Shown piece by piece: positions 35,195-64,000 of a DNA stretch of 64,000 nucleotides; position 1 is the stretch's first letter, and every line of letters begins with the position of its first letter. The translations under genes were made by a program, and so were the position numbers. Below the pieces are notes generated by a model. It did no database searches, was not told the origin of the DNA, and worked only from the letters and a program-made list of their open reading frames with translations. Source of the stretch: an uncultured Alphaproteobacteria bacterium (GTDB taxonomy: Bacteria > Pseudomonadota > Alphaproteobacteria > Rs-D84); the NCBI GenBank assembly GCA_944389345.1, contig CALXMA010000003.1:24294-88293 (forward strand), given 5' to 3'.

Positions 35195-35279
35195 GGCCCC
35201 GTGGCGGAATTGGTAGACGCGCTTGACTCAAAATCAAGTTCTGCAAGGAGTGTCGGTTCGAGTCCGACCAGGGCCACCA
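35195..35279 (+). tRNA. tRNA-Leu (anticodon CAA)
   Basis: CTTGA-CTCAAAA-TCAAG anticodon arm, long variable arm, GTCGG-TTCGAGT-CCGAC T arm, ACCA end; one C-A mismatch in the acceptor stem. Confidence 0.94.
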
Positions 35280-35590
35280 AAGATATAAACCACCTTTTAG
35301 GTGGTTTTATTTTTGGTCCTGCGTCGGACGAGAAGAGTCCGACCAGTATCGGGCCCCGCAAAAAAATATTTTTGTGGGTGATTTCGCCACCAGAAATATA
35401 AACCACCTTTTGGGTGGTTTTATTTTTGGTCCTGTGTCGGACGAGAAGAGTCCGACCAGTATCGGGCCCCGCAAAAAAATATTTTTTGTGGGTGATTTCG
35501 CCGCCAAAGATATAAACCACCTTTTGGGTGGTTTTATTTTTGGTCCTGTGTCGGACGAGAAGAGTCCGACCAGTATCGGGCCCCGCAAAA
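35273..35590 (+). repeat. 113-114-bp tandem repeat (~2.8 copies) starting in the tRNA-Leu 3' end
   Basis: Units start at 35273, 35386 and 35500; each holds an aaaccacc/ggtggttt terminator-like hairpin and tRNA T-arm-like sequence. Confidence 0.95.
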
Positions 35591-37529: not shown

Positions 37530-37693
37530 TACTAAATCCTTACTTTTTTACACCAAGAACTATATCATACAAAAACCCGATTCGCGAATTTATCATATAT
37601 ATAGTCCCCAAACACAAAAATACAACCCACATTTTTATGTTGACAAATTTTACTTATAGTATATCTTGTTTCTAAAAGGAATTTTTATAAAAA

Positions 37694-38077
37694 ATGACAC
37701 AAGAACACACAACTGGTTTTTATATGCTGGAAATGGCGCGTTTGAAACGGTTAATCGCGACATCTGTTGCCGAACACCAGAAAGTTTACGACGCGAACGT
37801 AAAAAACGTCGCCGAAATCCAAGAACTGCGGAAAAATCCGGCCCAAGATTTCGCGGCCCACATATTCGGTTATGCCGATATTGACCCTGATTCTGGTGAA
37901 ACAATCGAATTACGCCAAGAAATTTTGGCCATGAAATCTGATTACGACCTGGCACACACAGAAATGATGACGTCGCCCGCGTACCAGAACATCAGACTGT
38001 CCGAATTACGTTTTCTGCAAAGACAAAGAAAAACAATATCGAACCTGATTAAAAAAATTGCCCGCACGCGTGAATAA
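37694..38077 (+). CDS. Hypothetical helical protein
   Basis: 127-aa ORF divergent from clpP with AAGGA upstream. Confidence 0.6.
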   Translation: MTQEHTTGFYMLEMARLKRLIATSVAEHQKVYDANVKNVAEIQELRKNPAQDFAAHIFGYADIDPDSGETIELRQEILAMKSDYDLAHTEMMTSPAYQNIRLSELRFLQRQRKTISNLIKKIARTRE

Positions 38078-38100
38078 GACATTCGCATACTTATTTAATC

Positions 38101-38129
38101 TTGCAAATATTTATTTTTAACGATAACAT
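38101..38129 (+). promoter_or_regulatory. Putative sigma70 promoter of cassette A
   Basis: TTGCAA-17 nt-TAACAT just upstream of the first leader hairpin. Confidence 0.6.
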
Positions 38130-38137
38130 GATATTTG

Positions 38138-38377
38138 TGAATGGGTGTTCCATTCATGGGGTGTAACGACCTCTGCACACGCGTCGGAATATAATCTCGT
38201 GGCGCATCAATTGCGCTATTTTTACTATTACGACGAAAAACAAACTCCTGATTTTATGGGTCAGGAGGGTCGCGGAATATCAAATACGCGACACAATTCG
38301 TGTGATTGTCGTTAACCTCCTGACCACCAAATTTTGTTGGTGGTTTTTCATTTCGAAAAACATCAGGAGTCCAGACA
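38138..38377 (+). ncRNA. Structured leader RNA, copy A (C4/CI-like switch; NCCA-ended module 38259-38329; terminator 38322-38348)
   Basis: Same order of hairpins as copies B and C with compensatory changes; GGTCAGGAGG / CCTCCTGACC + ACCA. Confidence 0.75.
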
Positions 38378-38914
38378 ATGAAAACAAATTTTATATTACA
38401 CATTGGGATATTTGCGATACTAACCACAATACCCAACATCGCCAATGCAATTGGCATCGGTGGTACTGGTTGTATTCAAGGCCCCGGCATGACTTGCGAA
38501 TGTTCTGGTGGAAGCAACGCTGGTGCAACATGCACGGTAAATTCACAATGCCCTGGTGGAACATGCGTAAACGTCGGCGGCGGTATAACGCCGCCCACCC
38601 TTTGCACCCCAGAAAACTGCAAACCGACCACAACCGGTTGGGGTTCATGCGGTGTTGGCGCCAATTCGTATGTCGAATGCGAAGCAACCGCCGAATGCGT
38701 GAACAATTTGTGTGTACGTGGCCAAAATTACCGTTGTGTTGCCGGCGCATACGGCAACCCCAGCGCATCAAACGAAACCGCCTGTGCACCATGCCCATCA
38801 CCCGGAACATCGGCCGCGGGTTCGACCAGTCAATCCGATTGTTATATTCCGGCCGGAACCACCGGGTCGGACAGTACGGGCACGTATAAATATACGGCCA
38901 ATTGTTATTACTGA
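38378..38914 (+). CDS. Small Cys-rich secreted protein (family S)
   Basis: Signal peptide ILTTIPNIANA; C-terminal CYIPAGTTGSDSTGTYKYTANCYY. Confidence 0.85.
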   Translation: MKTNFILHIGIFAILTTIPNIANAIGIGGTGCIQGPGMTCECSGGSNAGATCTVNSQCPGGTCVNVGGGITPPTLCTPENCKPTTTGWGSCGVGANSYVECEATAECVNNLCVRGQNYRCVAGAYGNPSASNETACAPCPSPGTSAAGSTSQSDCYIPAGTTGSDSTGTYKYTANCYY

Positions 38915-38918
38915 TGCA

Positions 38919-38966
38919 TTTCCCCCAAAAAACATTCCCCCATCTTGGGGGAATGTTTTTGTTATT
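38919..38966 (+). terminator. Terminator-containing ~48-bp element, near-identical to 50648..50694
   Basis: tttcccccaaaaaacattccccca(t/c)...gggggaatgttttt; differs from the other copy by one substitution and one indel. Confidence 0.8.
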
Positions 38967-39034
38967 ACGCGCGCATATATGGGGTACGCCAATTTCATAA
39001 AAAAATCCCCATTTCGGGGATTTTTCACAACACC

Positions 39035-40135
39035 TTATGCAACCTTCTTCATATCGCGCTTTACATCACGTATGTATTTACGCAATTCATCAATTGGCAC
39101 CTGGGTCCCATCACGCCGTTCCGCAGACCAATAATCCCATCCGTTAAAACTGACACAATGTTGCAAACGCGCGGCCATAACATGAATAGATGCCTTGCCC
39201 ATCAACGGATGCACCAATTGTCCATCACGTGCAATCATGACACGTTCACCACGCGGACTGACCAAAGTCTGACCAACATACAGCAACCCTGCCTCGATTA
39301 ATTCCTTGAACGCGACGCGAATTTCGGCGCGTTTTGGTGTGGCCACCTCAATCCCAGACAAATCAATGGGCTTTACCGCATCAACACGCGCACGTGCGGC
39401 GGCAACATAATCTTCTTCCCGTTCAATACCGATAAAATTGCGCCCCAATTCCTTGGCCACGGCGGCGGTTGTACCACTGCCCAAGAACGGGTCCAAAATA
39501 ACATCCCCCTGGCGGGTTGACGCCAAAATCACCCGACGCAATAAATCCATAGGCTTTTGAGTATTGTGCAAACTTTTACCATCAGAATCTTTGACACGTT
39601 CTTCGCCCAAACAAATATTTATATTCCAATCAGACCGCATCTGTTTGCCACCATTTAACTTTTTCATTGTTTCATAGTTAAACGTGTACTTACCGGTCTT
39701 ACGTGGTGTTGCCCATATTAATGTTTCGTGCGCATTCGTAAAACGTGTCCCGCGGAAATTCGGCATAGGATTAGTTTTAACCCACACAATATCATTCAAA
39801 ATCCAAAATCCCAAGTCCTGTAAAATCGCACCAACGCGGAAAATATTATGATAACTGCCGATGACCCACATTGCCCCATCGGGTTTCAACACGCGCTTGC
39901 ATTCTGCCAACCACGCCCGCGTAAATTCATCATATTCGGCCATACTGCCAAAAGAATCCCACGAATCCCGAACGGCACGCGCCGCGGTTTGATCTTCGGG
40001 CCGATACAGTGTCTTGGCCCCCAATTGCAAATTATACGGTGAATCTGCAAATACGGCATCCACAGATGCATCTGGTATTCCGCGCATCAGTTCCACGCAA
40101 TCACCGGTCAAAATCTGATTCAGGTATTTTTCCAT
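39035..40135 (-). CDS. ccrM: CcrM-like adenine DNA methyltransferase (beta class)
   Basis: FADSPYNLQL, WVIGSYHNIFRVG, NPMPNFRGTRFTNAHETLIW, DPFLGSGTT, C-terminal NGWDYW domain. Confidence 0.88.
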   Translation of the reverse strand: MEKYLNQILTGDCVELMRGIPDASVDAVFADSPYNLQLGAKTLYRPEDQTAARAVRDSWDSFGSMAEYDEFTRAWLAECKRVLKPDGAMWVIGSYHNIFRVGAILQDLGFWILNDIVWVKTNPMPNFRGTRFTNAHETLIWATPRKTGKYTFNYETMKKLNGGKQMRSDWNINICLGEERVKDSDGKSLHNTQKPMDLLRRVILASTRQGDVILDPFLGSGTTAAVAKELGRNFIGIEREEDYVAAARARVDAVKPIDLSGIEVATPKRAEIRVAFKELIEAGLLYVGQTLVSPRGERVMIARDGQLVHPLMGKASIHVMAARLQHCVSFNGWDYWSAERRDGTQVPIDELRKYIRDVKRDMKKVA

Positions 40136-49772: not shown

Positions 49773-49778
49773 CTACAC

Positions 49779-50024
49779 TGAACCTGAACGGATATCGGGT
49801 TCGGGACTTCGAAAATCCCTTACAATGTCGGCGTTATGCGTCGTTAATCCAAAATGGCTTACTTATGCCATTTATCCCGACTTTGGTCGGGTTGCCACAG
49901 ACATACAACAGAACACACGTGCGTTCAAAATCTGTGGGGTCATTACATTGTATGATTTTTCGAACTTCCCGACCACCAGGTTTTTGGTGGTTTTTGTTTA
50001 CACACAAACAAAGGGAAACGAAAA
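49779..50024 (+). ncRNA. Structured leader RNA, copy B (NCCA-ended module 49885-49978; terminator 49971-49995)
   Basis: GGTCGGG / CCCGACC + ACCA; clear sequence similarity to copy C and same architecture as copy A. Confidence 0.78.
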
Positions 50025-50633
50025 ATGAAAAAATCATCACTGCTAATCATACCATCGATAATGATGGGAATATTAACAATCCCCAACACGGCATTTGGAT
50101 TAATTACAACCTGTAATCGGGTAGGATGTATGCCATCGGATCCCAGCATCCAAGTCCGGGGCATAAATTGTGCAATGTCAACCGCCACATGTTGGAGCAA
50201 TGGCACCCACAAAACGGGTGTTGAATCATGCACAATCTGCGAAAGTGGATATACCAAGGTATCCAAATCAACGATCCTAAGCTGTGGGAGTGGTACGGTA
50301 ACCGCGACATATAATACATGTTTACCCACCTGTACCACTTCAAATTGTAAAAGCGACACGTCATGGTCGGCCGCGGGCACGGGATATCAAAAAAAGGCGA
50401 ACCGTTCATGTTCCGACAGCACCACATGCAAAACCACATATTCATATCGTTGTGCGGCGGGATATTATGGTTCTTCGTCAAACGGAACATCCGGGTGCAA
50501 TCCATGCCCCAGTGGCGGCACATCATCCGCGGGTACAACATCTGCAACGGGTTGCTATATTCCATCGGGGACCACGGGTTCTGATTCCACGGGTACGTAC
50601 AAATATACATCCAATTGCTATTGGAAGAATTAA
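50025..50633 (+). CDS. Small Cys-rich secreted protein (family S)
   Basis: Signal peptide ILTIPNTAFG; C-terminal CYIPSGTTGSDSTGTYKYTSNCYW. Confidence 0.85.
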   Translation: MKKSSLLIIPSIMMGILTIPNTAFGLITTCNRVGCMPSDPSIQVRGINCAMSTATCWSNGTHKTGVESCTICESGYTKVSKSTILSCGSGTVTATYNTCLPTCTTSNCKSDTSWSAAGTGYQKKANRSCSDSTTCKTTYSYRCAAGYYGSSSNGTSGCNPCPSGGTSSAGTTSATGCYIPSGTTGSDSTGTYKYTSNCYWKN

Positions 50634-51295: not shown

Positions 51296-53860
51296 TTACA
51301 TTTCGATATCTTCGCACTTTTCCACAGGCGCAGATTCTTCGCATTTCAATTCATTCTTGGCGCCAATTCCCAAGAATCCTTTTTTAACAATAGACTGGCA
51401 CGATTTTGTAACCGTTGACGTACAGTAATGACACGTACGTGTTTCGCGATTAAACAACGACCACATTTCGCGCGTACCACTGGGCAATTCAACCTTGACA
51501 CGATTAGAACCCAACCCGGTAAAAGAATTGACAAGTTCTGCCGCCTTGGACGTCCCCGCGGTGGTATCTTGGACCGCGACGCCCGATGTTGCCCCAGACG
51601 AACGCCCCGCCCCCTGGACCAGCAAACTGTTATCCAGTCCGGCGCCAACCTCGTAACTGATGGCATACGGCGCGGTCAGTGGCGTATCCACGTCGGTTGC
51701 CCCACCCAACACAGAACCATTTGTTGTCGGCAACATCTGACACATATATTGCGCCAAATCGGTCGATGCGTTTCGCGTTGCTTCGGCCACCGCCGTGTTC
51801 AGTTTTGCGTTATAGTTATCCTGTGCCTGGCGCAATGCCGCCATCGCGATTTGCATTTTCACCTGGTTCAACAGGTTCGGGAACCGCCCCGTTGTTCTTT
51901 CACCCGCATCCCCGGTAATCTGGGACAAATCACGTCCGCTGATACAGAATTGAATTTCCGGATCCTGTTCAATCATTTCGATTGTACGGTTAATGGTACC
52001 CGCAATATTATTCAGTTCTTCTTCGATGGTATCAATAATCGCATCGGCATTCGGGACATCTGCATTTCTTTCACGAATCTGCGCCAGATATTCAGACACA
52101 CCAATTTCGCCCGGTCCCAGATACACGGTATTACCGTCTTCGTCTTCGATTGTGGTACCGGTTGCCCCACCCATTTTAATACTGCCAAAAGAAATCATAC
52201 CTGTGACACGATATATATTGCCATCTTTCTGTGAACGCAAAGAACCCGCACCCATTGTATCGTCTGCGGCGAAACGATTACAATCTGTGGTACTGCCACA
52301 AACTTCGGACATTTTTTGTTCCGTCAACATCTGGCACTGTTCCATCATAGAATTATCGATGTTCAGATACAGCCCCATCAACATTTCATCCAAATCGTCC
52401 ATTGAAAAGTTCGGATTATTCGCCTTGCAAACGACCAAACTGTCAATCGGACAAATTTCATGGATATAGTCATAATCCATACCGATACAGTTTTCAAAAT
52501 TAGCACCACAACGTGTTTCATCGGTAAAGCAATCTTTCACTTCTTGGGTACACGCATCGACCCGCATAGCGGCCAACTTGTCTTCCACATACCCCCAAAT
52601 CAACGGTTCCATACGTTCACACGGATCAATTTCAACCTTGCAGAAACTGCGCGCCATTTCTGGTCTTGACAAACACGCATCCATTGTTGCGATTCCTTTG
52701 CCGGCGATATCATCGCGACACGCGGTTGTTATACAGTCTGAAATTTCTGACAAACAAGACTGACGGAATTTTGATTCCGCCTGGTTTTCAGCAAACCGAA
52801 TGGCGGGCGCGGCTTCGCGCAGGAAATTCGGCCAAACCATATCCCGCACGGCCACACATTGATCCAAAACATTTTCACAAATCGGCCGTTTTGCCTCTAA
52901 CATTTCCAACGTAGACGCCGTTATATCATACACATCAACGGTTTCGACGGTGGTCCCGGCGGTACTGACGGCTTCATTATTCTGCATATTTTCAGATGCA
53001 ATAGTCGCGACACAGTTTTCCCAACCTTCACCGCACGCATCAACACCCTGCATACACGTTCTGAATTCAACCATGCACTGCCCCAGGTCATATTTATTTG
53101 CGGCATTAAAACTTTCCTGGTATGCGGCACGCACGGCGGCCTCGGCCGATGCCAATTGATTTTCCGCCTCGCCCCGCTTAGACGCCAAAGAATTTTTATA
53201 TCCCAAACAATCAGATGTAATTTGTCGTGAATATAATTGACGCAAGAATTCTATATCACCCGCACAAGAATCCGGGACCTGGGCCACGCACATATTATCG
53301 GCGGCCACATATAAATCATCGCCGACCAAATCACCCATATTCGATACAGAATTTTCGCCAAAAACATCATCTTCCATATCGTATATGCTGGTATTAAATA
53401 TTTCCAACAAACTGGCGCGACGCTGTTCTCGTTCCTCTTCTGGGGTCAGTTCATCCACATCAATAATATTTCCATCTTCGTCATATCGACGTTGACCGGT
53501 AAAGACAATATCTGCATCGGCACCGGCCTGGACGCGTTCCACACCTTCGGTCATCAATTTATTCGCATTGTCCAATATTTCTTGGATTTCGGCCAGTTCT
53601 TTATCATATTCAATACTGTCATCACTGCACGTGCATGCGCCGCCACTGGTATTATCAGTTATACAGAATTGATCCATACATCCAAAATACGCGTCATAGC
53701 ACGCCTGGTCATACAACCCCGTTGCCTGGATACGTGTTCGTACGGTGGTTCCCTGTTGAATTGCCGACTGTCGCCCGGACGTGGTCAGCCCATAAGAATC
53801 CAGCGCGCACACAACCGCCCCCAGTGCCACCGTACAACCAAGAACCGTTTTAAGTTTCAT
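51296..53860 (-). CDS. Large Cys-rich secreted protein (family L)
   Basis: Signal peptide; CYDAYFGCMDQFC...GACTCS motif. Confidence 0.85.
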   Translation of the reverse strand: MKLKTVLGCTVALGAVVCALDSYGLTTSGRQSAIQQGTTVRTRIQATGLYDQACYDAYFGCMDQFCITDNTSGGACTCSDDSIEYDKELAEIQEILDNANKLMTEGVERVQAGADADIVFTGQRRYDEDGNIIDVDELTPEEEREQRRASLLEIFNTSIYDMEDDVFGENSVSNMGDLVGDDLYVAADNMCVAQVPDSCAGDIEFLRQLYSRQITSDCLGYKNSLASKRGEAENQLASAEAAVRAAYQESFNAANKYDLGQCMVEFRTCMQGVDACGEGWENCVATIASENMQNNEAVSTAGTTVETVDVYDITASTLEMLEAKRPICENVLDQCVAVRDMVWPNFLREAAPAIRFAENQAESKFRQSCLSEISDCITTACRDDIAGKGIATMDACLSRPEMARSFCKVEIDPCERMEPLIWGYVEDKLAAMRVDACTQEVKDCFTDETRCGANFENCIGMDYDYIHEICPIDSLVVCKANNPNFSMDDLDEMLMGLYLNIDNSMMEQCQMLTEQKMSEVCGSTTDCNRFAADDTMGAGSLRSQKDGNIYRVTGMISFGSIKMGGATGTTIEDEDGNTVYLGPGEIGVSEYLAQIRERNADVPNADAIIDTIEEELNNIAGTINRTIEMIEQDPEIQFCISGRDLSQITGDAGERTTGRFPNLLNQVKMQIAMAALRQAQDNYNAKLNTAVAEATRNASTDLAQYMCQMLPTTNGSVLGGATDVDTPLTAPYAISYEVGAGLDNSLLVQGAGRSSGATSGVAVQDTTAGTSKAAELVNSFTGLGSNRVKVELPSGTREMWSLFNRETRTCHYCTSTVTKSCQSIVKKGFLGIGAKNELKCEESAPVEKCEDIEM

Positions 53861-53886
53861 ACCATTCCCCCGCGTAATCACACACA

Positions 53887-56067
53887 TTACATATTAATGT
53901 CTTCGCAACTTTCAATTTCCTGACAGAATTCCTGTTCGCCACCGGCACTGCGTCCTGCAAAGAATCCGCCAACCGCACCAACGACGGCACCAATTGCGGT
54001 TCCCCAACCCGGCGACACCATTGTCCCCGCAGACGCACCGGCCGCCAAACCACCTGCGGCACCCTGGGCCCCGGCGGCACCCTTAGACTGCCCACCGACT
54101 TCGCACACCTGTTGCATACGACAAACGTGGCAATTACGCAACGCCGGTTCAAAGGATACACTGCGTATATAACTATAATTTTTACTGGACTTATCCGGTG
54201 TTTCAACCTGATACATGTTATAGCAGTTTTCTTCCGCTTCTTCCAAACTTTGCTGGCGCGACAGTTCCGCAATCTTAGATTCTAATTCACGCATAGCACG
54301 ATTTTCGGCATTAATTTGCGCAATCATTTTGGCACTGTTAAACACGCTGTCCCCCAGACTGCGTCTGTCCGCGGGCTTTTGCGTATCCATACACGCGGCC
54401 ACGGTTTTATCCTGTTCAAATTGTTCAAAGAATTCATCAACTGTACTTTCCATATTGGAACGCACGGTTTCACGCAACAGCGCCAGTTCTTCTTGTGTAT
54501 CGGGCACTTCGACCAGCGATGCAATCTGGGTATCTGTCGGCAGACAAGACATATCTGTCCCACAAACCGCACCCAATTGTTCACTAAAATAATTCAAACA
54601 GCCCTGCAACATCTGATAATCCATCTGCAACAACACGGCTTGGACAATGATATCGAATTGCGGTTCGTTTTTGCACGATGGGAACATGCTCTGTGGGCAC
54701 AGTTCCGCGATTTCGACCGCGCTTTTTCCAACACATTCTGGCGCGGTAAAGTTATCACCGCATCTACTGCGCATACATTGGTCAATATCATTCTGACAGA
54801 ATTGTGTTTGCAAATATCCCAATTTGTCATTAACCGCCGTTTTAATTCCCGGTATCATTTCTTCGCATTCGTCGATAACTGGACAAACACCCGCCGCAAC
54901 ATTAACGTCGGTCAAACACGCAGAATTGGTTTCTGGCGAACAACTGTCTTCCAGACACAACTGAATCCGCGCCAAACATGTCGCACGTGCATTTCTGTCG
55001 GCATATTTGGCCGCATCGACCAAGATAGATTCGGCCTCGGCCTCCCAGTCTTGCAACACATATTCACGCACGGCCATACATTGATCCAAAACATTTTCGC
55101 ACGCATTCGCACGACGATTTAACAAATCCGCATCCAAACAGTTTTCAAAATTCACACCACAACCGCCCTTGTCTGCGATACAAGACCGATACGCCAACAA
55201 ACATTCACCGCGATTATATTTGTTTGTCGTATCTAACATTTCCAAACGCGCCTGACGAACGGCGGCCTCGGCCGTGCGCTTGTTTTGTTCCGCAATGGAT
55301 TTCTGATCTGCCAAATACGTTTCAAATGTTTTACAGTCTTGAACAATCTGGCGCGCATACAGCATTTCTTCCATTTCGGCATCATCACCACAAGATTTCA
55401 ATCTGTCGGCACAATATTCCGCCGCCATTGCGTACAGGTTATCGCCAATATCATAATCCGCCCCCAAACCATCGGACACATCGTTGCCACTGTTAATCCA
55501 TTCGGTAAAACTTATACCCGACACACGTGAACTTTTCTGTGCTTCTTCACTTTCGCCAAAGACCAAACGCGCCTGTGCCCCCAGTTGTTCACGTTCAACA
55601 CCCTCGGTATACAACAGGTCTGCCTCGTTTTGAATTTTCTGAATTTCTTGAATTAATGATTTTGCCTGATTTATATTAGACGAACACGCACAGCGTCCAC
55701 CCTCGGTTTCATCCAGCAAACAGAATTCATCCATACACGCCCGATACGCATCGCGACAAGACTGTGAAACAATCGCACCGGTTTCACCATCACCACCGTC
55801 ATCTTTGACATCGTCATCATCCGCATTATCCGGCGTCGTTGTTGTTCCGCCACCCGACACAGATGTCGACCCACCACCCGGTTTTATCGACAATGTCGGC
55901 ATAGACGCAGTATTACTGTCTGACAAATCCACCGACATATTCCCGGAATGCAACCCGGCCTGGGCCACACGATTCACCCCCACGCGCACGGTTCCCGACG
56001 TTCTGTCCACACCGAACGCGACACCTGGGCAAACGGCCAACAATGCAAAAAAGAATCCTAGTTTCAT
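53887..56067 (-). CDS. Large Cys-rich secreted protein (family L) with C-terminal glycine zipper
   Basis: Signal peptide; CRDAYRACMDEFC...RCACSS; GAAGGLAAGASAGT..PGWGTAIGAVVGAVGG. Confidence 0.85.
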   Translation of the reverse strand: MKLGFFFALLAVCPGVAFGVDRTSGTVRVGVNRVAQAGLHSGNMSVDLSDSNTASMPTLSIKPGGGSTSVSGGGTTTTPDNADDDDVKDDGGDGETGAIVSQSCRDAYRACMDEFCLLDETEGGRCACSSNINQAKSLIQEIQKIQNEADLLYTEGVEREQLGAQARLVFGESEEAQKSSRVSGISFTEWINSGNDVSDGLGADYDIGDNLYAMAAEYCADRLKSCGDDAEMEEMLYARQIVQDCKTFETYLADQKSIAEQNKRTAEAAVRQARLEMLDTTNKYNRGECLLAYRSCIADKGGCGVNFENCLDADLLNRRANACENVLDQCMAVREYVLQDWEAEAESILVDAAKYADRNARATCLARIQLCLEDSCSPETNSACLTDVNVAAGVCPVIDECEEMIPGIKTAVNDKLGYLQTQFCQNDIDQCMRSRCGDNFTAPECVGKSAVEIAELCPQSMFPSCKNEPQFDIIVQAVLLQMDYQMLQGCLNYFSEQLGAVCGTDMSCLPTDTQIASLVEVPDTQEELALLRETVRSNMESTVDEFFEQFEQDKTVAACMDTQKPADRRSLGDSVFNSAKMIAQINAENRAMRELESKIAELSRQQSLEEAEENCYNMYQVETPDKSSKNYSYIRSVSFEPALRNCHVCRMQQVCEVGGQSKGAAGAQGAAGGLAAGASAGTMVSPGWGTAIGAVVGAVGGFFAGRSAGGEQEFCQEIESCEDINM

Positions 56068-56214
56068 GAAACCCACCCTACATAATTTATATATAATTTT
56101 ATCAAATGCGCCCCATCGGTGCAAGCAGATATAAAAATATCTTGCAATTTTTTTGATAACGCCATATTATTACACCTGAATTTTTTTCAGTTAATACAAC
56201 AACGGAATATATGT

Positions 56215-56460
56215 ATGGCAAAAGATGATGTAATCGTTTTTTCTGGCACGGTCGAAGATAAATTACCGAACACTATGTTTCGGGTACGCTTGGAAAACGG
56301 CCACGAAATTTTGGCGACTGTTTGTGGCAAAATGCGCAAGGCACGCATTTGGGTAAACGTCGGCGAACGCGTACGCGTTGAAATGACCCCATATGATTTG
56401 GACAAGGGACGCATAACATTCGTTGAACGCAACCGCCCATCCACGGAACAGCAACAGTAA
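56215..56460 (+). CDS. infA: Translation initiation factor IF-1
   Basis: MAKDDVI...[13 protein letters not shown]...GKMR...[12 protein letters not shown]. Confidence 0.97.
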
Positions 56461-56575
56461 TCAAAAAAATCCGCCAACGGCGGATTTTTATCAATATATT
56501 TTTGCCCCAATATGGATAAATAACACTTTCCAATACGGCATATTTTTGTTATCATTTACCTGTATAAAACGGGAA

Positions 56576-59176
56576 ATGAGGAATTTTTTTATTTTCATCA
56601 TTGCGTGTTTAATCGGCATCGCAAATGCCGATGGTGCCGTACGTGATTCAGACGCCGTTTCCCGTGGCGGGAAATCTGCCACCGACACAAATACAATCAT
56701 TGCCCGCACGACAACGGTTGTCCCAACCACCCGAACATCCGAACGCGCACTGGGTTCGCGCGAAGCGACAACGTCCGGTGGACGTGGAACAAACATTGTA
56801 TCGCGTGGCGACAATATATCACGTGGTGCGAACCGCACCGCAACAGACACCACCGTTGCCCGTTCGGCGCGCACCACAACAACCCCACAAACGACCACAT
56901 CTGGGCGCAGTGCGACAAAAACCGTTTCCCGAACATCAAATATGTCGCGCGCATCGGCAACAAATACGGTTGCACGTTCTGCCCGCGCGACCAGTGTTGC
57001 CCCCGTATCTGTAACGAATACATTTGGCACAGATTATAATACATGCCGTAATGCGTACTTTACATGCATGGACCAATTTTGCGCCACCGCGAACGACCAA
57101 TATCGCAGATGTGTGTGCTCGTCGCGCCTGACAGATATCCAAGAACGCGAACGCGCCCTGTCACAAACGGCGGGCCAAATCCAAGATTTCAAAGATTTGA
57201 ATATAGAGGTTATACCAAAAACCGCCGAAGAAGTGCACGCCATGCTGAACGCAACCGAAGGTGAATTGGCCATCATCGAAGATAAATCTGCATCGGCCCA
57301 ACAATTGGCAGGCATCAGCGAGGTTTTATCATCCGCCAAGCACCAGGCGTTAAACACACTGGGGACACTGGACATTGCAGGCGACATCAATCAAATATGG
57401 GCAACAACAGATTTGGCATCTGGGGCAAATATATCAAACCTGACTGGCGAAGCGTTATATAACGCCGTCCACGCCCAATGCGTTGAATTAATTTCCGCCC
57501 AATGTCCATCCAGTGCGACACTGAACATGGTCGTATCTGCGTACGGCATGTACATAGAAAATGATTGCACAACATTGTACAATGCCCTGGATACCCAGTT
57601 GAACCAGGCGAACAGCACAATACGCGAAACAGAACGTGAAATGAATACGGCGCGTCTGGACAACTATAACGCCCACAATTCAACATCTATCAACGATTGT
57701 ATTGCCCAGGTACGCGCCGACATCACCGCGGACACTGCATGCGGTACAGATTATGTTCATTGCCTGGACGTAACGGGCCAGTACTTAAATCGTGATACTG
57801 GCGAACCCATATATACACCTAATTTCTATCAATTGGCGAACCAGGTTTCACTCGAAGGCGACGTCCTGACCAATCCAACAAACCGAATGATTGTTGCGGA
57901 ATTAAACAGCAAGCGTATCTATGCAGAACGCGGTTTGGAAACATGTCGCGACATTGCGAACGACGTCTGGGACGAATTCCTGCGCCAGGCGATTGCCGAA
58001 ATATACCAAGGCCAACAGGAAAAAATCCGTACCGTCAAGAACGAATGCCTGGACGTGGTCAACGCCTGCTATGATGAGCAGAGTGAATCGTTAAAAGATT
58101 TTAGCAATATCAAAGAAGAATTATTGGCGGGTTCACGTCTGGAATTATCCGAAGAATTATGCGAAGAAAAACTGTACGCGTGCAGTAATTTATACGGCGA
58201 CCCCAATGGCGAAGGTCTGGAATTATTAATAACCGCAATGCACGACATCACAGATCAAAAGATTGCCAAAGAATGCAAGGCATTATTAGAGGCCTTTGCG
58301 GTTGACACCTGCTCTACGCCCAGCAACGACAGTTTACACGCATATCCGTACGCGTGCCGTGTTTACGCGCCTGGTGAACAAAAGTATGCAACCAATTGGT
58401 TCTGTAATCAATTGCAATGGGAAAACACATCCGGTGGTGCGGGTTCCGGGATTATTCCGGGTGGCGGTGGTGGTGGCGGTTCATCCACCAACGGATACGT
58501 ATGCCCAGAATCAATTATGTACACATCATGCCGTGCGGGATACTTTATGGCGATATACGATTCAAACCGTGGCGGTTACGCATACAACGGCACACCAACG
58601 GCGGGCAATTCGTGTCAACCATGTCCCGCGGGTTCCAAATGTCCTGGTGGCACCGAAGCCCCCGAAGGTGGCGATTTCTCGCCAACGGATACAAATTGTG
58701 GTCCCGACTATGCGGGCAGTCTGTATCAGCGTATGGTTAAATACGCGACCCAGGTCTGTGTACGTCCATCTTATTACGATGCGATTATGACGGGTGAAAT
58801 GGATATTCCGATGACGGTATTGCAAGACGTCAACGTGGTAATGGATTCCATACGTGTTGACATGGCCAAGGCCCTGTCTGCGGAATGCGACAGATTGGGT
58901 GGCCAATGGGTTGACACCCAATGGTTGGACGTTATGGAAAACACCGACACGAACGGCAACGGGACACTGGACAATATATCCGATAATGTACACGACAAAA
59001 CAGATCACGTATTGTTCAAATATTTCTATGATGAAACTGGTGCAAATACCAAATGGGGATTCTGTGCGGAAATCCCGACCGACGAAGAAGAAGCAACAGA
59101 AAAAGAGGAAGAAGAAGGCGAAGGCGAAAGCGAAGGCGAAAATTCCGGCGAAGAATCTGGTGGTGAAACGACGTGA
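56576..59176 (+). CDS. Large Cys-rich secreted protein (family L) with T/R/S-rich N-terminus and acidic tail
   Basis: Signal peptide; CRNAYFTCMDQFC...RCVCSS; most similar to 17812..20982. Confidence 0.85.
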   Translation: MRNFFIFIIACLIGIANADGAVRDSDAVSRGGKSATDTNTIIARTTTVVPTTRTSERALGSREATTSGGRGTNIVSRGDNISRGANRTATDTTVARSARTTTTPQTTTSGRSATKTVSRTSNMSRASATNTVARSARATSVAPVSVTNTFGTDYNTCRNAYFTCMDQFCATANDQYRRCVCSSRLTDIQERERALSQTAGQIQDFKDLNIEVIPKTAEEVHAMLNATEGELAIIEDKSASAQQLAGISEVLSSAKHQALNTLGTLDIAGDINQIWATTDLASGANISNLTGEALYNAVHAQCVELISAQCPSSATLNMVVSAYGMYIENDCTTLYNALDTQLNQANSTIRETEREMNTARLDNYNAHNSTSINDCIAQVRADITADTACGTDYVHCLDVTGQYLNRDTGEPIYTPNFYQLANQVSLEGDVLTNPTNRMIVAELNSKRIYAERGLETCRDIANDVWDEFLRQAIAEIYQGQQEKIRTVKNECLDVVNACYDEQSESLKDFSNIKEELLAGSRLELSEELCEEKLYACSNLYGDPNGEGLELLITAMHDITDQKIAKECKALLEAFAVDTCSTPSNDSLHAYPYACRVYAPGEQKYATNWFCNQLQWENTSGGAGSGIIPGGGGGGGSSTNGYVCPESIMYTSCRAGYFMAIYDSNRGGYAYNGTPTAGNSCQPCPAGSKCPGGTEAPEGGDFSPTDTNCGPDYAGSLYQRMVKYATQVCVRPSYYDAIMTGEMDIPMTVLQDVNVVMDSIRVDMAKALSAECDRLGGQWVDTQWLDVMENTDTNGNGTLDNISDNVHDKTDHVLFKYFYDETGANTKWGFCAEIPTDEEEATEKEEEEGEGESEGENSGEESGGETT

Positions 59177-59255
59177 TATCTGGCGCCAAATAATGAATAT
59201 GTTATCTTGCCTTGGATAAAAATTTTTGTTAAAATTAAGAAAACGAGAGAAGAAA

Positions 59256-59975
59256 ATGAAAAAAATATTCGCTGTTTCTGTTATGTGTTTAATGTTTGCG
59301 CCATCGGCGTTTTCTGCGGTTCCATGGTGGGAACAACCGACGATATGTAAATTGGATCCAACGGATTGTTATTCGACAATGGGCGCCGGCTATGATGGCG
59401 AGGCATGGGATTCCGAAACTGGATGTTGGGGCATGAAATACATCTGTCCTGAGGCGTTAAAGACCCCTGGTTCATATCAACCCGTGCTGATGGGACGCCA
59501 AGAAATTGCCAGTGGTAACAAGATTAACATAGACTATGACACAAACATTTTGAACGGCGATTGTTTTGGTGTTCGCAAGACGACCGATAATGGCGCGATG
59601 GCATCTGTTAACGGCGAATATGTGCGTGTATGGTGCAACGGCGTTCTGGACAATCCGGACCCGGACAATTATCTGCCAAATGGCGAATTGCCAGAAAACG
59701 GTCGCGAACCAACATGTTCGGAATTGGCACGCAACGGATTTATGGCGACCCAGGCGGGTAAATGCTTTGGTAAATATTACGATCCTATGAAATATAAGAT
59801 TGAATGTGGCGACCCGAATTCTATTTTTGCAACAAACATATTGGAATTGAATGGCGCGGATCCATCGTATACGTACGCGAATGCCCCCACAACGGCGGAT
59901 GACGCGGACGACATATTCGACCGGATGCAGGAAAAATCCGCGTCCCAGCGCAAGATATATTTCCAAGACGATTAA
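59256..59975 (+). CDS. Cys-containing secreted hypothetical protein
   Basis: Signal peptide ending AFS/A; multiple cysteines; followed by a hairpin and T run. Confidence 0.75.
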   Translation: MKKIFAVSVMCLMFAPSAFSAVPWWEQPTICKLDPTDCYSTMGAGYDGEAWDSETGCWGMKYICPEALKTPGSYQPVLMGRQEIASGNKINIDYDTNILNGDCFGVRKTTDNGAMASVNGEYVRVWCNGVLDNPDPDNYLPNGELPENGREPTCSELARNGFMATQAGKCFGKYYDPMKYKIECGDPNSIFATNILELNGADPSYTYANAPTTADDADDIFDRMQEKSASQRKIYFQDD

Positions 59976-60754: not shown

Positions 60755-61046
60755 TTTATCCCCCATTGTTTTAATAACCCGTCCGTCCAGACACCCAGAC
60801 GAACGAAACAAAAAACCGCCCATGAATTGGCGGTCGGGGATTTGAAAAATCATAAAAGAAAATGACCCCGCGATTTTTAGGGATTGCCCCCTGTTATATA
60901 GTCGCAGATCCCCGACACTCATGTCGGGTGATAAAACACACGGCGCACACGCGCCGACGTTTTCTTGTCGGATTCAGTACTGAATTAATCAGCACAGTTC
61001 TTTTACAGGATTTTCAAGTCCCTGAGCCGGCGTCCCCGCCAGTTCA
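60755..61046 (-). ncRNA. Structured leader RNA, copy C (NCCA-ended module 60917-60828; terminator ~60834-60809)
   Basis: GTCGGGGAT / ATCCCCGAC-C + GCCA; homologous to copy B. Confidence 0.78.
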
Positions 61047-61052
61047 ATACAA

Positions 61053-61137: not shown

Positions 61138-64000
61138 TTAAAAATCATATCTGAATTTCAACATACCTGTGTGCGACGTATAATCTTGGTGCAGATCCAG
61201 GTCATAGTTGACCGATATTTCCCACCCGTTATACAGCGCGGCCAATCCGATACCGAATTCGCCACCGAACCGCGACAGACGTTCACCCGGCATTACGTAT
61301 GAACCAATACCTGGGATATCAACTGTTGCGATTGATTCGTCTGACATAAAGTCATACGTTGCGGCCGCACGCAGTTCTGGACGGAACAACCAATCCGAAC
61401 CCGATTCGATTGTGAACGCATACTTTGCGCCAATCACACCGGTCAGATAATCATAGCTGGCATCAGATACCGCGCCCAACACGGAATTATAACCGTCTTG
61501 TGCGATATGCAGGTAACGGACACCGACCTCTGGCGTCAGACCGAACGCCATATCATAACCGCCCATCAATTGACCACCGAACGAATCGACATCATATTCT
61601 TCGTCATGTACGATACCAAACGCGGCCACTTTGTTGGTATAGTTGGACATTGTATAGTTCAACGTACCATTAACGTACCACTGATTTGGTTTATACTGGC
61701 CATACACGAACAAACTGTTGCTGGTGATATCAACATCGTTCTTGGCTTCGACATCAGATTCGTTATACGCGTATCCGATACCGATTGTGTATTTATCCGC
61801 GATTAACGCATCTGCACCGACGGCAATACCCATTGTGTCGCCTGTAAATTCATCCGCATATTTAGAATGATTATACAGACCCTGGGCCCACACGCCGTAT
61901 TCAGCATTTGCGAAATCACCACCGTTGCGTCCTGCGACCATTGCGCCACTCATACGGTTTGTTGCGACGGACAGAACCTGGTTCTGGACAGATGTCGCAA
62001 CAGATTGCGCCACGGGCTTATCCTGGGGCAACAATTTGGCCGTACCAGTTTCGACGTATTCGGTATCACCACGCGCCAACGCTTCTTGTACGTTCAGCGC
62101 CGCGATATTCAACGTGTCGTCTTGGCTGGACATCAATCCGGTCAACACAGCTGCCGCATTGGACGAAACACCGTTGTTTTCGGCAATTTCCGCCACCGAT
62201 TTCAACGATACAACCATGTTGTTATCTTCATTGAATTTAACATTGTAAACGGAATCGTTATATGCGATTTTGGCCTCTGGCACCGTAACACCAATGTTAT
62301 ACGTACCGACCGAACCCAACATCAGATCCAACACACCGTTTTCACCAACGACAATGTTTTCTGTCTGAATCTTTGCGAACGATTTTTCATTTACAATTTG
62401 CGCGGCCAACGTACCATTCAATGCAATCTCAGATTGCTGGATAGATGTTGTACCAATGCTTAACGTTGCGCCATCTTTAATGGTCAGATTACCGGTTCCG
62501 GTAATACCGCCACCCAACTTGGTCACACCACCACTGATAACCAGCGAACCTTCATTATGGATGTCGTTTGCAACGCCCGCGGCCGTATTGCCACTGAACA
62601 AGTTTTCACCGTCCAGAACAATGTTACCACGTCCGTTATTGTAAATGGCACCCCCCTGTTCACCGGCCTTGTTTCCGGTAAAATCGGTGTTTTTTAACGT
62701 AATGGTCGCAATGGCGGTGCCATCTGTATCCTGTGGCGCAACGTTTGCAATTGCACCGCCAATCTTATCTGCGCGATTGCTATTAAATTCAGAATCATCA
62801 ATCAACACAATATTACCGGCGTTAACAATTGCACCGGCCAACTTACCTTCATTTTTTTGGAACGACACGTGCGATATCTTGTCAATCACGCCCGCGTTGT
62901 AAATGGCACCACCGGCATTGCCCGCAACATTGTGCTTAAACTCAACCAGTTTCGTATTTGCAAAAGATAATGTTGCACCCTGTTCATTCCAGATTGCGCC
63001 ACCAAAATTTGCATTGTTGTCTTCAAACAACATACCATCGGCAATCGTGGTTTTCACAGTATTGAAAATCGCACCACCGTTTGCCTTGGCAATGTTGGTT
63101 TTGAATTCAGAATCAGACAATGTCAACGAAGACACCTCGGAATCTGCCCCCATACGTGTTGATATTGCACCACCGTATGTGCCAGATTCATTACCCGTGA
63201 ATGTGGAACCACTGATGGTTGTGTTGGATTCGTCGTACAAGAATATTGCACCGCCACCACCATTGGCATCCAACACGGGTTTGCCTGTTTCTACAACCTT
63301 TGTACCGGTTGTTTTATTTCCGGTAAATGTTGAATTTTTTACAACCAACGTTGCATCAGAAACAACCGCACCCCCTTCGGCACCGGTCTGGTTCTGGGCA
63401 AATGTGGAACCATCGATAGTCATTGTTGCGGTTGAACCGTTCTCCTGCAAAATGGCACCACCGGCAACTGTCGAATCATTCTTTTCAAACGTAGAATTCT
63501 TGATATCTACCGTACCCGTGACACCACTGCTTATAAACAGGGCACCACCACCAGCTGTTTTATTTGTACTACCAATAGCGTGGTTTGTATCAAAAGTAAA
63601 GTTATCTAAACTTAACACCGCATCCGCATTTTTACCATTATATGCCAATGCACCACCCTGTGCGCCCGTATTGTTTTCAAACGTATACCCTGTACCCAAC
63701 GTAGCGTCATTATTAGCAATATACAGCGCACCACCTACTTGCGTGGATGTGTTTTCAGAAAACTTTGCATTGTTCCCCATCACAAACTTATCCGCACCAA
63801 CATTGATATTAATCGCGGCGCCACCTTTCTTGGAATTGTTCTTTGTAAATACAGCATTATCACCAATTTCCAAAGAACCGTTATTAAATGCCGATAAAGC
63901 AATTCCACCTGCATTTCCTGTAAATTCTGCACCATCGCCTATTTTAATTTCACCACCACCATAGACGGCCGCCCCGGTTAAATTACCAGAAAATTTAACA
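61138..64000 (-). CDS. Autotransporter with Chlamydia Pmp-like GGA(I/L/V) and FxxN passenger repeats (5' end lies beyond the window)
   Basis: Many GGAI and FxxN repeats; C-terminal barrel from VWAQG to KFRYDF; frame stays open from 63873 to the window edge. Confidence 0.9.
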   Translation of the reverse strand, partial: VKFSGNLTGAAVYGGGEIKIGDGAEFTGNAGGIALSAFNNGSLEIGDNAVFTKNNSKKGGAAININVGADKFVMGNNAKFSENTSTQVGGALYIANNDATLGTGYTFENNTGAQGGALAYNGKNADAVLSLDNFTFDTNHAIGSTNKTAGGGALFISSGVTGTVDIKNSTFEKNDSTVAGGAILQENGSTATMTIDGSTFAQNQTGAEGGAVVSDATLVVKNSTFTGNKTTGTKVVETGKPVLDANGGGGAIFLYDESNTTISGSTFTGNESGTYGGAISTRMGADSEVSSLTLSDSEFKTNIAKANGGAIFNTVKTTIADGMLFEDNNANFGGAIWNEQGATLSFANTKLVEFKHNVAGNAGGAIYNAGVIDKISHVSFQKNEGKLAGAIVNAGNIVLIDDSEFNSNRADKIGGAIANVAPQDTDGTAIATITLKNTDFTGNKAGEQGGAIYNNGRGNIVLDGENLFSGNTAAGVANDIHNEGSLVISGGVTKLGGGITGTGNLTIKDGATLSIGTTSIQQSEIALNGTLAAQIVNEKSFAKIQTENIVVGENGVLDLMLGSVGTYNIGVTVPEAKIAYNDSVYNVKFNEDNNMVVSLKSVAEIAENNGVSSNAAAVLTGLMSSQDDTLNIAALNVQEALARGDTEYVETGTAKLLPQDKPVAQSVATSVQNQVLSVATNRMSGAMVAGRNGGDFANAEYGVWAQGLYNHSKYADEFTGDTMGIAVGADALIADKYTIGIGYAYNESDVEAKNDVDITSNSLFVYGQYKPNQWYVNGTLNYTMSNYTNKVAAFGIVHDEEYDVDSFGGQLMGGYDMAFGLTPEVGVRYLHIAQDGYNSVLGAVSDASYDYLTGVIGAKYAFTIESGSDWLFRPELRAAATYDFMSDESIATVDIPGIGSYVMPGERLSRFGGEFGIGLAALYNGWEISVNYDLDLHQDYTSHTGMLKFRYDF

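Follow-up and report, generated by a model that had tools for sequence, protein, structure and literature searches.

The leader designated as A, located in front of a gene for a 178-aa Cys-rich protein, is very probably a self-targeting attenuator resembling sRNA-Xcc1 and C4 RNAs, and likely a domesticated phage-type antisense module that was joined to an intrinsic terminator. All coordinates refer to the window, i.e., the whole stretch of 64,000 nt that was analysed. The initial annotation described here one motif with four mutually exclusive pairing sites, including the ribosome-binding site (RBS). These four sites are the output half of a larger leader. That reading overlooked the input half, which consists of two variable long-range pairings from an upstream target to a three-stem domain, as well as the homology of this domain to sRNA-Xcc1 and C4-type phage antisense RNAs. 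Folding models make it moderately probable that the attenuator is OFF by default and is switched ON in trans by its own released small RNA.

All parts of leader A lie on the plus strand. A sigma-70 promoter is predicted from the sequence at 38101..38129, with the -35 element at 38101-38106, a 17-nt spacer, and the -10 element at 38124-38129. It is absent from the output of the consensus promoter scan; a loosely defined -10 is present at the same place in 27 and a -35 in 26 of 28 intact copies of the leader, both as raw counts with no shuffle control. The 5' hairpin P1 (38137..38157) has double-sided changes at seven of eight pairs in 17 copies and is among the top pairs by mutual information. 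The hairpin P2 (38158..38173), recognized by helix analysis, carries target site 1 in its loop (38164..38170), the first variable part of a code, which pairs with 38308-38314. The 5' arm of P2 (38158-38162) can alternatively pair with 38315-38319, which would block the b:c helix. Target site 2 (38176..38181) is the second variable part of the code and pairs with the loop 38299-38304. A spacer stem of variable length, P3 (38181..38236), includes an inner terminator-like hairpin at 38199-38219 and is missing in minimal copies. Segment a (38244..38254) is the anti-antiterminator; it pairs with segment b and in A's subfamily is complementary also to the RBS.

The Xcc1/C4-like three-stem domain at 38259..38329 is composed of the closing helix b:c, P5, and P6, and by analogy it is the predicted small RNA released by processing. 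Segment b (38259..38268) starts with GGT, like the RNase P site of C4 RNAs in the available text of PMC5320573. The a'-like recognition loop of P6 (38299..38304) was identified by mutual information and covariation, and the b'-like recognition strand 3' of P6 (38308..38314) by covariation. Segment c (38316..38325) pairs with b or with the 5' arm of P2 and overlaps the intrinsic terminator, a hairpin with U tract at 38323..38348 that was found by terminator scan and folding; the folding models predict b:c to be the antiterminator. The Shine-Dalgarno region d (38362..38370) is complementary to a and c in A's subfamily only. The controlled gene at 38378..38914 codes for the 178-aa protein, with a signal-like N-terminus by eye, and the terminator scan placed another terminator behind it at 38935..38960.

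All eight coordinate ranges of the initial annotation agree with the letters. CTCCTGA is at 38245-38251 and 38317-38323, and TCAGGAG is at 38261-38267 and, in the Shine-Dalgarno region, at 38363-38369. The perfect 10-bp pairing of b with c and the perfect 9-bp pairing of 38244-38252, within segment a, with the RBS region 38362-38370 are present as described, and the overlap of c with the terminator stem (38322-38345) was confirmed. The 7-mer and its complement occur twice each in the 64-kb window, all four inside 125 nt. The fold of leader A has an energy of -91 kcal/mol (z = -7.6), and none of 200 shuffles was equally stable. Selection on structure, which had been proposed, is supported by covariation of helices and target pairings across copies. 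The attenuator layout of a:b, b:c, and terminator is supported as well, as 108 of 124 leaders combine segment a with a U-tailed terminator at the end of c. The description of A as the most divergent copy holds within the window only; genome-wide, A has many close relatives at 74-89% identity. In the window, A is a type I copy and the other two are type II. One of these is at 49778..49999 on the plus strand and precedes a gene for a 202-aa Cys-rich paralogue (50025-50633). The other is at 60807..61047 on the minus strand (read from 61047 to 60807) and precedes two small Cys-rich genes at about 60754-60114.

The genome is 0.89 Mb in size. The order Rs-D84 has been described as a group of gut bacteria with reduced genomes and a probable dependence on partners (PMC12306168). 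The named relatives of the protein downstream of A are found in Ca. Enterousia and in further Alphaproteobacteria, from which the genome is taken to belong to Ca. Enterousia, within this order. A profile search (E < 1e-4) found 31 leader copies of two types in the genome. The type I covariance model has matches in 92 of 101 genomes and 16 of 18 genera of the family, and in 102 of 121 genomes of the order; among the latter are 13 of the 29 order genomes that lie outside the family. A single genome has up to 58 matches. Because no type II covariance model was obtainable, type II is undercounted in these figures, which come from the type I model. After duplicates and one copy with a deletion from a to c were dropped, 124 distinct leaders of the Enterousia family were compared, and segment a was found in 122 of them. 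Three leaders of one genome (L130, L135, and L145 of G061) are minimal, about 140 nt long, lacking P3 and having a tetraloop in place of P5; they are good constructs for structure work. Contigs titled Bacteroides fragilis (L053, L058) encode the Cys-rich family, that of L053 also a full type I leader, and are probably mislabelled or misbinned Enterousia DNA. In the window, clpP and a DNA methyltransferase gene flank the block 37605-39035, which holds a 127-aa ORF, leader A, and the Cys-rich gene. In two gut runs, contigs from related strains or species bridge the block, which therefore has the appearance of an accessory insertion. Strains also differ in the variable N-terminal region of the Cys-rich gene at 38378..38914.

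The input half was recognized by covariation. For target site 1, the 17 type I copies had 83 of 85 cells paired and 31 double changes, a level that none of 500 shuffles reached; in 12 type II copies, 81 of 83 cells were paired. The second pairing, 38176-38181 with the P6 loop 38299-38304, came out of an unbiased mutual-information scan of 65 and 64 sequences and has double-sided changes at all six pairs (65 sequences). The same scan revealed the single pair 38162:38293, with 60 of 63 cells paired and six double changes. The pairing of the P2 arm with c, by which the duplex zips on, is conserved but without any double-sided change, and it is not locus-specific, as the own locus pairs no better than others. 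For the code comparison, 28 of the 31 copies were used, the other three having no usable target. Each of the 28 intact targets is best matched by the RNA of its own leader, and 11 bp were reached in just 19 of 756 cross pairs. At the level of sequence, the two target sites jointly form a code that is private in all 28 intact copies.

These codes bear on two other explanations of the leaders. In the one closest to the earlier reading, the leader acts in cis only, as a riboswitch or a protein-bound attenuator whose double pseudoknot is an aptamer for a regulon-wide metabolite, ion, or protein. The complex conserved fold, the conserved A-rich internal loop in P5, the terminator output, and the many copies before surface genes would all fit it. 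Second-messenger riboswitches show such a many-copy pattern before surface genes. Nevertheless, this explanation is quite unlikely, as variability is highest in the paired codes, each of them unique to its locus, no Rfam riboswitch family matches, the minimal copies have a tetraloop for the P5 loop and do without P3, and a like target and three-stem domain, together with a second target, stand in phage antirepressor leaders. T-box, TPP, purine, SAM, ZTP, HDV, twister, and pistol RNAs were dropped on the basis of their topology and for want of an Rfam match. In the other explanation, the three-stem RNAs hit mainly other targets, such as host mRNAs or incoming phage, and the attenuator is secondary, as proposed for Acinetobacter C4-like sRNAs. 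A precedent is the 21 C4-like sRNAs of one chromosome in the available text of PMC5320573, and in one intact leader the terminator is not directly followed by a gene. Short AT-rich codes do have many matches in the genome, as raw counts with no chance comparison. However, each code covaries with its own upstream target, the two-part pattern of copy A recurs just once elsewhere in the genome, and several codes do not recur at all, which makes this explanation very unlikely.

The descent of the three-stem domain was traced through Rfam and phage loci. RF02221 (sRNA-Xcc1) has 10 matches in the genome, and all 10 fall on the b-to-c domain of leaders, nine of them type II; their scores, 25-38 bits (best 38.2), all fall short of the 53-bit cut-off. 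Copy A is without a match to RF02221. Type II copies align to RF02221 over its full length, with the same three-stem fold and internal-loop motif. The three-stem junction, the A-rich internal loop, and the unpaired strand before the closing helix are present according to type II alignments and type I covariation. RF01695 (C4) gave no match and RF03163 (c4-a1b1) no significant match. Since the layout is C4-type and the C4 models do not match, the leader works like a C4-type module and is not a member of the C4 family. At the gathering threshold, Rfam recovered three tRNAs only in the whole window, and for leader A the hits from a scan by E-value were all at chance level. A distant blastn search with this leader found no match in 50,697 phage records.

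Eighty viral loci with the Xcc1 motif were collected, and 66 distinct phage modules were compared. All 20 phage loci tested pass the RF02221 cut-off, and antirepressor-type domains were recognized in 26 of 30 downstream phage ORFs tested (out of 74). The upstream two-part target is present in 57 of the 66 phage modules (other-locus control 76/792), and a second target over the RBS in 53 (control 48/792). Among the Enterousia-family leaders, the upstream target is present in 119 of 124 (control 69/1488), whereas a downstream RBS target in 7 of 124 is at control level (52/1488). The combination of segment a and U-tailed terminator on the end of c is found in none of the 66 phage modules. Judged by sequence comparison, the leaders have thus lost the downstream RBS target of the phage modules and gained segment a and the U-tailed terminator. 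No antirepressor domain was detected in 53 tested downstream ORFs of Enterousia-family leaders.

Four modules of other Alphaproteobacteria (L320, L324, L325, and L328) are Xcc1-like: the target is upstream, c carries a U-tailed hairpin, and a downstream target is missing, so the terminator form is not confined to Rs-D84. L320 precedes a DNA methylase gene (PF01555), which looks like a type III Mod gene, and L325 and L328 precede genes that look pilin-like by eye. At G181:C1:749745-751817 (L313 and L331), three Xcc1 modules stand in tandem about 994 bp apart; L313 and L331 have differing codes and near-identical 104-aa genes behind them.

The direction of the switch was approached by folding. 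Co-transcriptional folding had been put forward as a check of the alternative pairings, and the growing transcript of copy A was folded in the model. Pairing in the predicted folds starts with a:b; next, the recognition strands reach back to the target, the duplex extends, and the P2 5' arm takes the first half of c, by which the terminator is freed. At terminator length, the self-paired fold of copy A has -85.8 kcal/mol versus -75.3 kcal/mol for the b:c fold, both computed with no pseudoknot terms. The 119 leaders with a target were folded to just past c, and their target sites were masked to mimic a bound RNA. The b:c helix exceeded 0.5 in one of 119 free leaders, in 89 of 119 with the target masked, and in 5 of 215 control masks; 88 leaders flipped on and none off. 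In the own genome, type II copies included, 20 of 28 flipped. In 30 of the 119 leaders, b:c was not reached even when masked, and one type II copy forms b:c even without a mask. With folding extended to the full terminator, b:c prevails in just 10 of 119 masked leaders; as the terminator wins there even with the target masked, the ON state must be kinetic.

As a positive control, 50 phage modules were masked in the same way, and RBS-target pairing went up in 23, down in one, and was unchanged in 26. This direction is repressing, as it is for C4 in the available text of PMC5320573. In both settings, a trans-bound RNA would let the cis three-stem domain fold, with a silenced RBS as the predicted outcome in phage and an antiterminator in the leader.

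Four natural mutants, although few in number, fit the self-activating polarity. In two copies the target is lost or broken, b:c folds freely, and the ORF is intact; two copies unable to form b:c stand before broken genes. The copy L036 (G000:C14:569-760, minus strand) has lost P1, P2, and the target but kept the promoter-like site; in the folding model its target-less b:c reaches P = 1.00, and a permanent ON state is predicted for it. The gene that it precedes is intact and closely paralogous to the gene behind A. The copy L047 (G000:C1:100597-100760, minus strand) has a deletion between the direct repeats a and c, by which the target and the terminator are left; its downstream gene lacks an ATG start and is cut short by an early stop. 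Such a deletion could speak for a role of the inverted repeats in DNA, with inversion or deletion between repeats switching the gene. But no strand-changing joint was found in four DNA runs, three of them searched as contigs, which drop rare variants, and with thin raw-read cover of the leader, and the G-U pairs and the covariation of loop to strand fit RNA rather than recombination sites, so a DNA switch is extremely improbable.

A different matter is the opposite polarity, in which a cis double pseudoknot stabilizes b:c (default ON) and the terminator forms once mature RNA covers the target. Such negative autoregulation would produce a brief burst upon gene transfer or dilution, as phage immunity does, and it would keep the repressor role that C4 and CI have in the available texts of PMC5320573 and PMC4825925. 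ViennaRNA scores the leaders without the cis state in which P2, P6, and b:c are all kept plus two pseudoknots. Each of the two target helices contributes about -7 kcal/mol when loop penalties are left aside, against a median energy gap of about 10 kcal/mol; pseudoknot energy, which is outside the folding model, could close this gap, and the polarity might then be the reverse. The covarying pair 38162:38293, with P2 and P6 intact, also favours a defined pseudoknotted complex; the pair belongs to an intact-hairpin complex, which may be the trans complex or the cis state. On the other hand, b:c forms unaided when the target is masked or, as in L036, naturally deleted, and covering the target should therefore not cause termination. 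Moreover, a:b and both target helices precede c, leaving c beside the P2 arm. The opposite polarity is accordingly considered unlikely.

Under the preferred reading of a default-OFF attenuator, a would capture b as b is made, and the two recognition strands would pair back to the upstream target, from where the duplex would zip on into c. With b:c excluded, the terminator would fire and no three-stem RNA would be made. If a mature three-stem RNA of the same code covers the target, c would displace a, b:c would form, and read-through would follow. RNase P would then cut at the start of b and release more of the same RNA, as proposed by analogy with C4 and CI. An RNase P RNA is present in the genome, and GGT or GGC opens segment b in 109 of 124 leaders. 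As to expression, no RNA run searched contained the stretch: three metatranscriptome contig sets had nothing matching it, and one run labelled as RNA is probably DNA, a result that speaks neither for nor against the small RNA. A tRNA mimic with a strict CCA end was also considered and dropped, as ACCA stands behind the helix in just 38 of 124 leaders. Since the released RNA is more activator and terminated transcripts supply none, the loop would be one of positive feedback with two stable states, and every locus would hold its own heritable ON or OFF state. True heritable bistability is, however, put forward tentatively, as something less probable than its absence. The same reserve applies to the wider and rather doubtful reading of RNA-only, code-addressed epigenetic phase variation, with dozens of bistable switches per genome and a phage lysogeny-memory RNA whose output is inverted.

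Sequestration of the RBS, which the initial annotation took for a part of the motif, is not a general feature. The set for this analysis comprised the 106 of 124 leaders with a usable ORF and Shine-Dalgarno sequence. Complementarity of a to the RBS of at least 7 bp was found in 14 of 51 leaders of A's subfamily, in one of 42 and none of 12 in two others. An extended Shine-Dalgarno motif is present in 24 of 51 leaders of A's subfamily, in 2 of 54 of the two other subfamilies, and in 5 of 583 long ORFs. The RBS pairing is real in A's subfamily, where it may be an added translational lock, but a leader's own a and RBS pair no better than those taken from different leaders of the same subfamily, so shared descent explains the pairing equally well.

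Behind the 31 copies of the genome, 23 genes code by reading for Cys-rich proteins with signal-like N-termini and three for lipoprotein- or barrel-like proteins. Two further copies stand before small HTH-like proteins, two before broken genes, and one has no adjacent gene. The 178-aa protein is one of 24 paralogues with a conserved C-terminus and, judging from its sequence, is likely secreted. It has 44 homologues, none carrying a name; no Pfam family scored over the cut-off and no usable Atlas hit was obtained. Of the downstream ORFs of type I hits (n = 112), 56 have at least 5% Cys. Pfam analysis of 53 of the other 56 recognized YadA anchors, outer-membrane barrels, glycosyltransferase 61, acetyltransferases, and XRE-type HTH proteins, and most had no family. 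Behind the terminator of an intact type II leader (L045, G000:C3:89337-89640, minus strand) comes no gene at first but a second promoter-like site, followed by a gene with a signal-like N-terminus. Other elements were observed in the window. A 114-nt unit is repeated three times in tandem at 35238-35578, just after a tRNA-Leu gene, each unit with a terminator-like hairpin. Large Cys-rich genes (863, 745, 917, and 249 aa) whose products have signal-like N-termini are clustered at 51296-59975, and their layout is unrelated to that of the small leader-controlled family. An autotransporter with Chlamydia PMP-type repeats is coded at 61138-63873, immediately upstream of the leader's third copy.

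The design of a phage immunity RNA has very probably been recruited as a widespread chromosomal regulator across the family, and more patchily across the order, and the Rfam family sRNA-Xcc1 is recast as the effector part of a module that targets itself. If the polarity is as predicted, the leaders would be a protein-free positive-feedback memory controlling surface variation, and the family would supply hundreds of natural orthogonal RNA switches. If also the phase-variation reading is true, a gut bacterium of 0.9 Mb would toggle single surface or secreted proteins heritably, without DNA rearrangement, methylation, or a protein regulator, and the codes would be a natural library of orthogonal, self-amplifying transcription-activating RNAs.

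Among known systems, the logic of a:b, b:c, and terminator is shared with classical 1:2 / 2:3 / 3:4 attenuators and terminating riboswitches; the leader differs in having no evident leader peptide or matched aptamer family, and its input appears to be an RNA code. The leader shares with the C4 RNAs of P1 and P7 (RF01695) a three-stem RNA with two recognition strands and a specificity code in the loops. The targets of these C4 RNAs go by the names a1b1 and a2b2. In contrast to C4, the leader has no downstream target, its output is an intrinsic terminator with activation predicted, type I matches number up to 58 per genome, and the genes behind the leaders are for Cys-rich, surface, modifying, or small HTH proteins, with no antirepressor domain among the 53 tested. 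The P1 c4 RNA is described in the available text of PMC5320573 as having three stems, loops a' and b', and a GG-type 5' end cut by RNase P. The same text describes Group 1 C4-like sRNAs of Acinetobacter baumannii, with 21 chromosomal copies, GG-motif processing, and a variable loop a'. They are likewise multicopy chromosomal C4-like RNAs, but RF01695-type, and the available part of PMC5320573 describes no cognate upstream target, attenuator, or surface-gene regulon for them. The CI RNA of P4 is a small RNA that is processed from a leader, pairs with its own leader (seqA/seqC), and controls termination, and IsrK (Gifsy-1 IsrK/STnc1160) activates its own long transcript in trans, both according to the available text of PMC4825925. 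CI differs in causing termination via upstream and downstream sites, and IsrK in being the upstream part rather than a three-stem part and in acting mainly on translation; both are single-copy prophage systems, unlike the leader family.

For sRNA-Xcc1, an 88-nt species was mapped in Xanthomonas (PMC2996969), and the RNA is treated as a trans-acting sRNA in the available texts of PMC12189769, PMC2996969, and bioRxiv 2025.06.18.660453. The leader domain has the same three-stem fold, the same internal-loop motif, and the same boundaries from the start of b to just past c, and members of RF02221 over the cut-off carry a like two-part upstream target. The phage members differ by the added RBS target and do without the combination of a and U-tailed terminator. 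The available parts of the literature on sRNA-Xcc1, Enterousia, Rs-D84 RNAs, C4, CI, and bistable antisense antitermination (including PMC2864571 and PMC11701678) give no description of the leader, of Xcc1 as a module directed at itself, or of a self-activating antitermination loop. Set beside these systems, the leader family very probably represents a phage antisense immunity module that was rewired to an attenuator and amplified with private codes.
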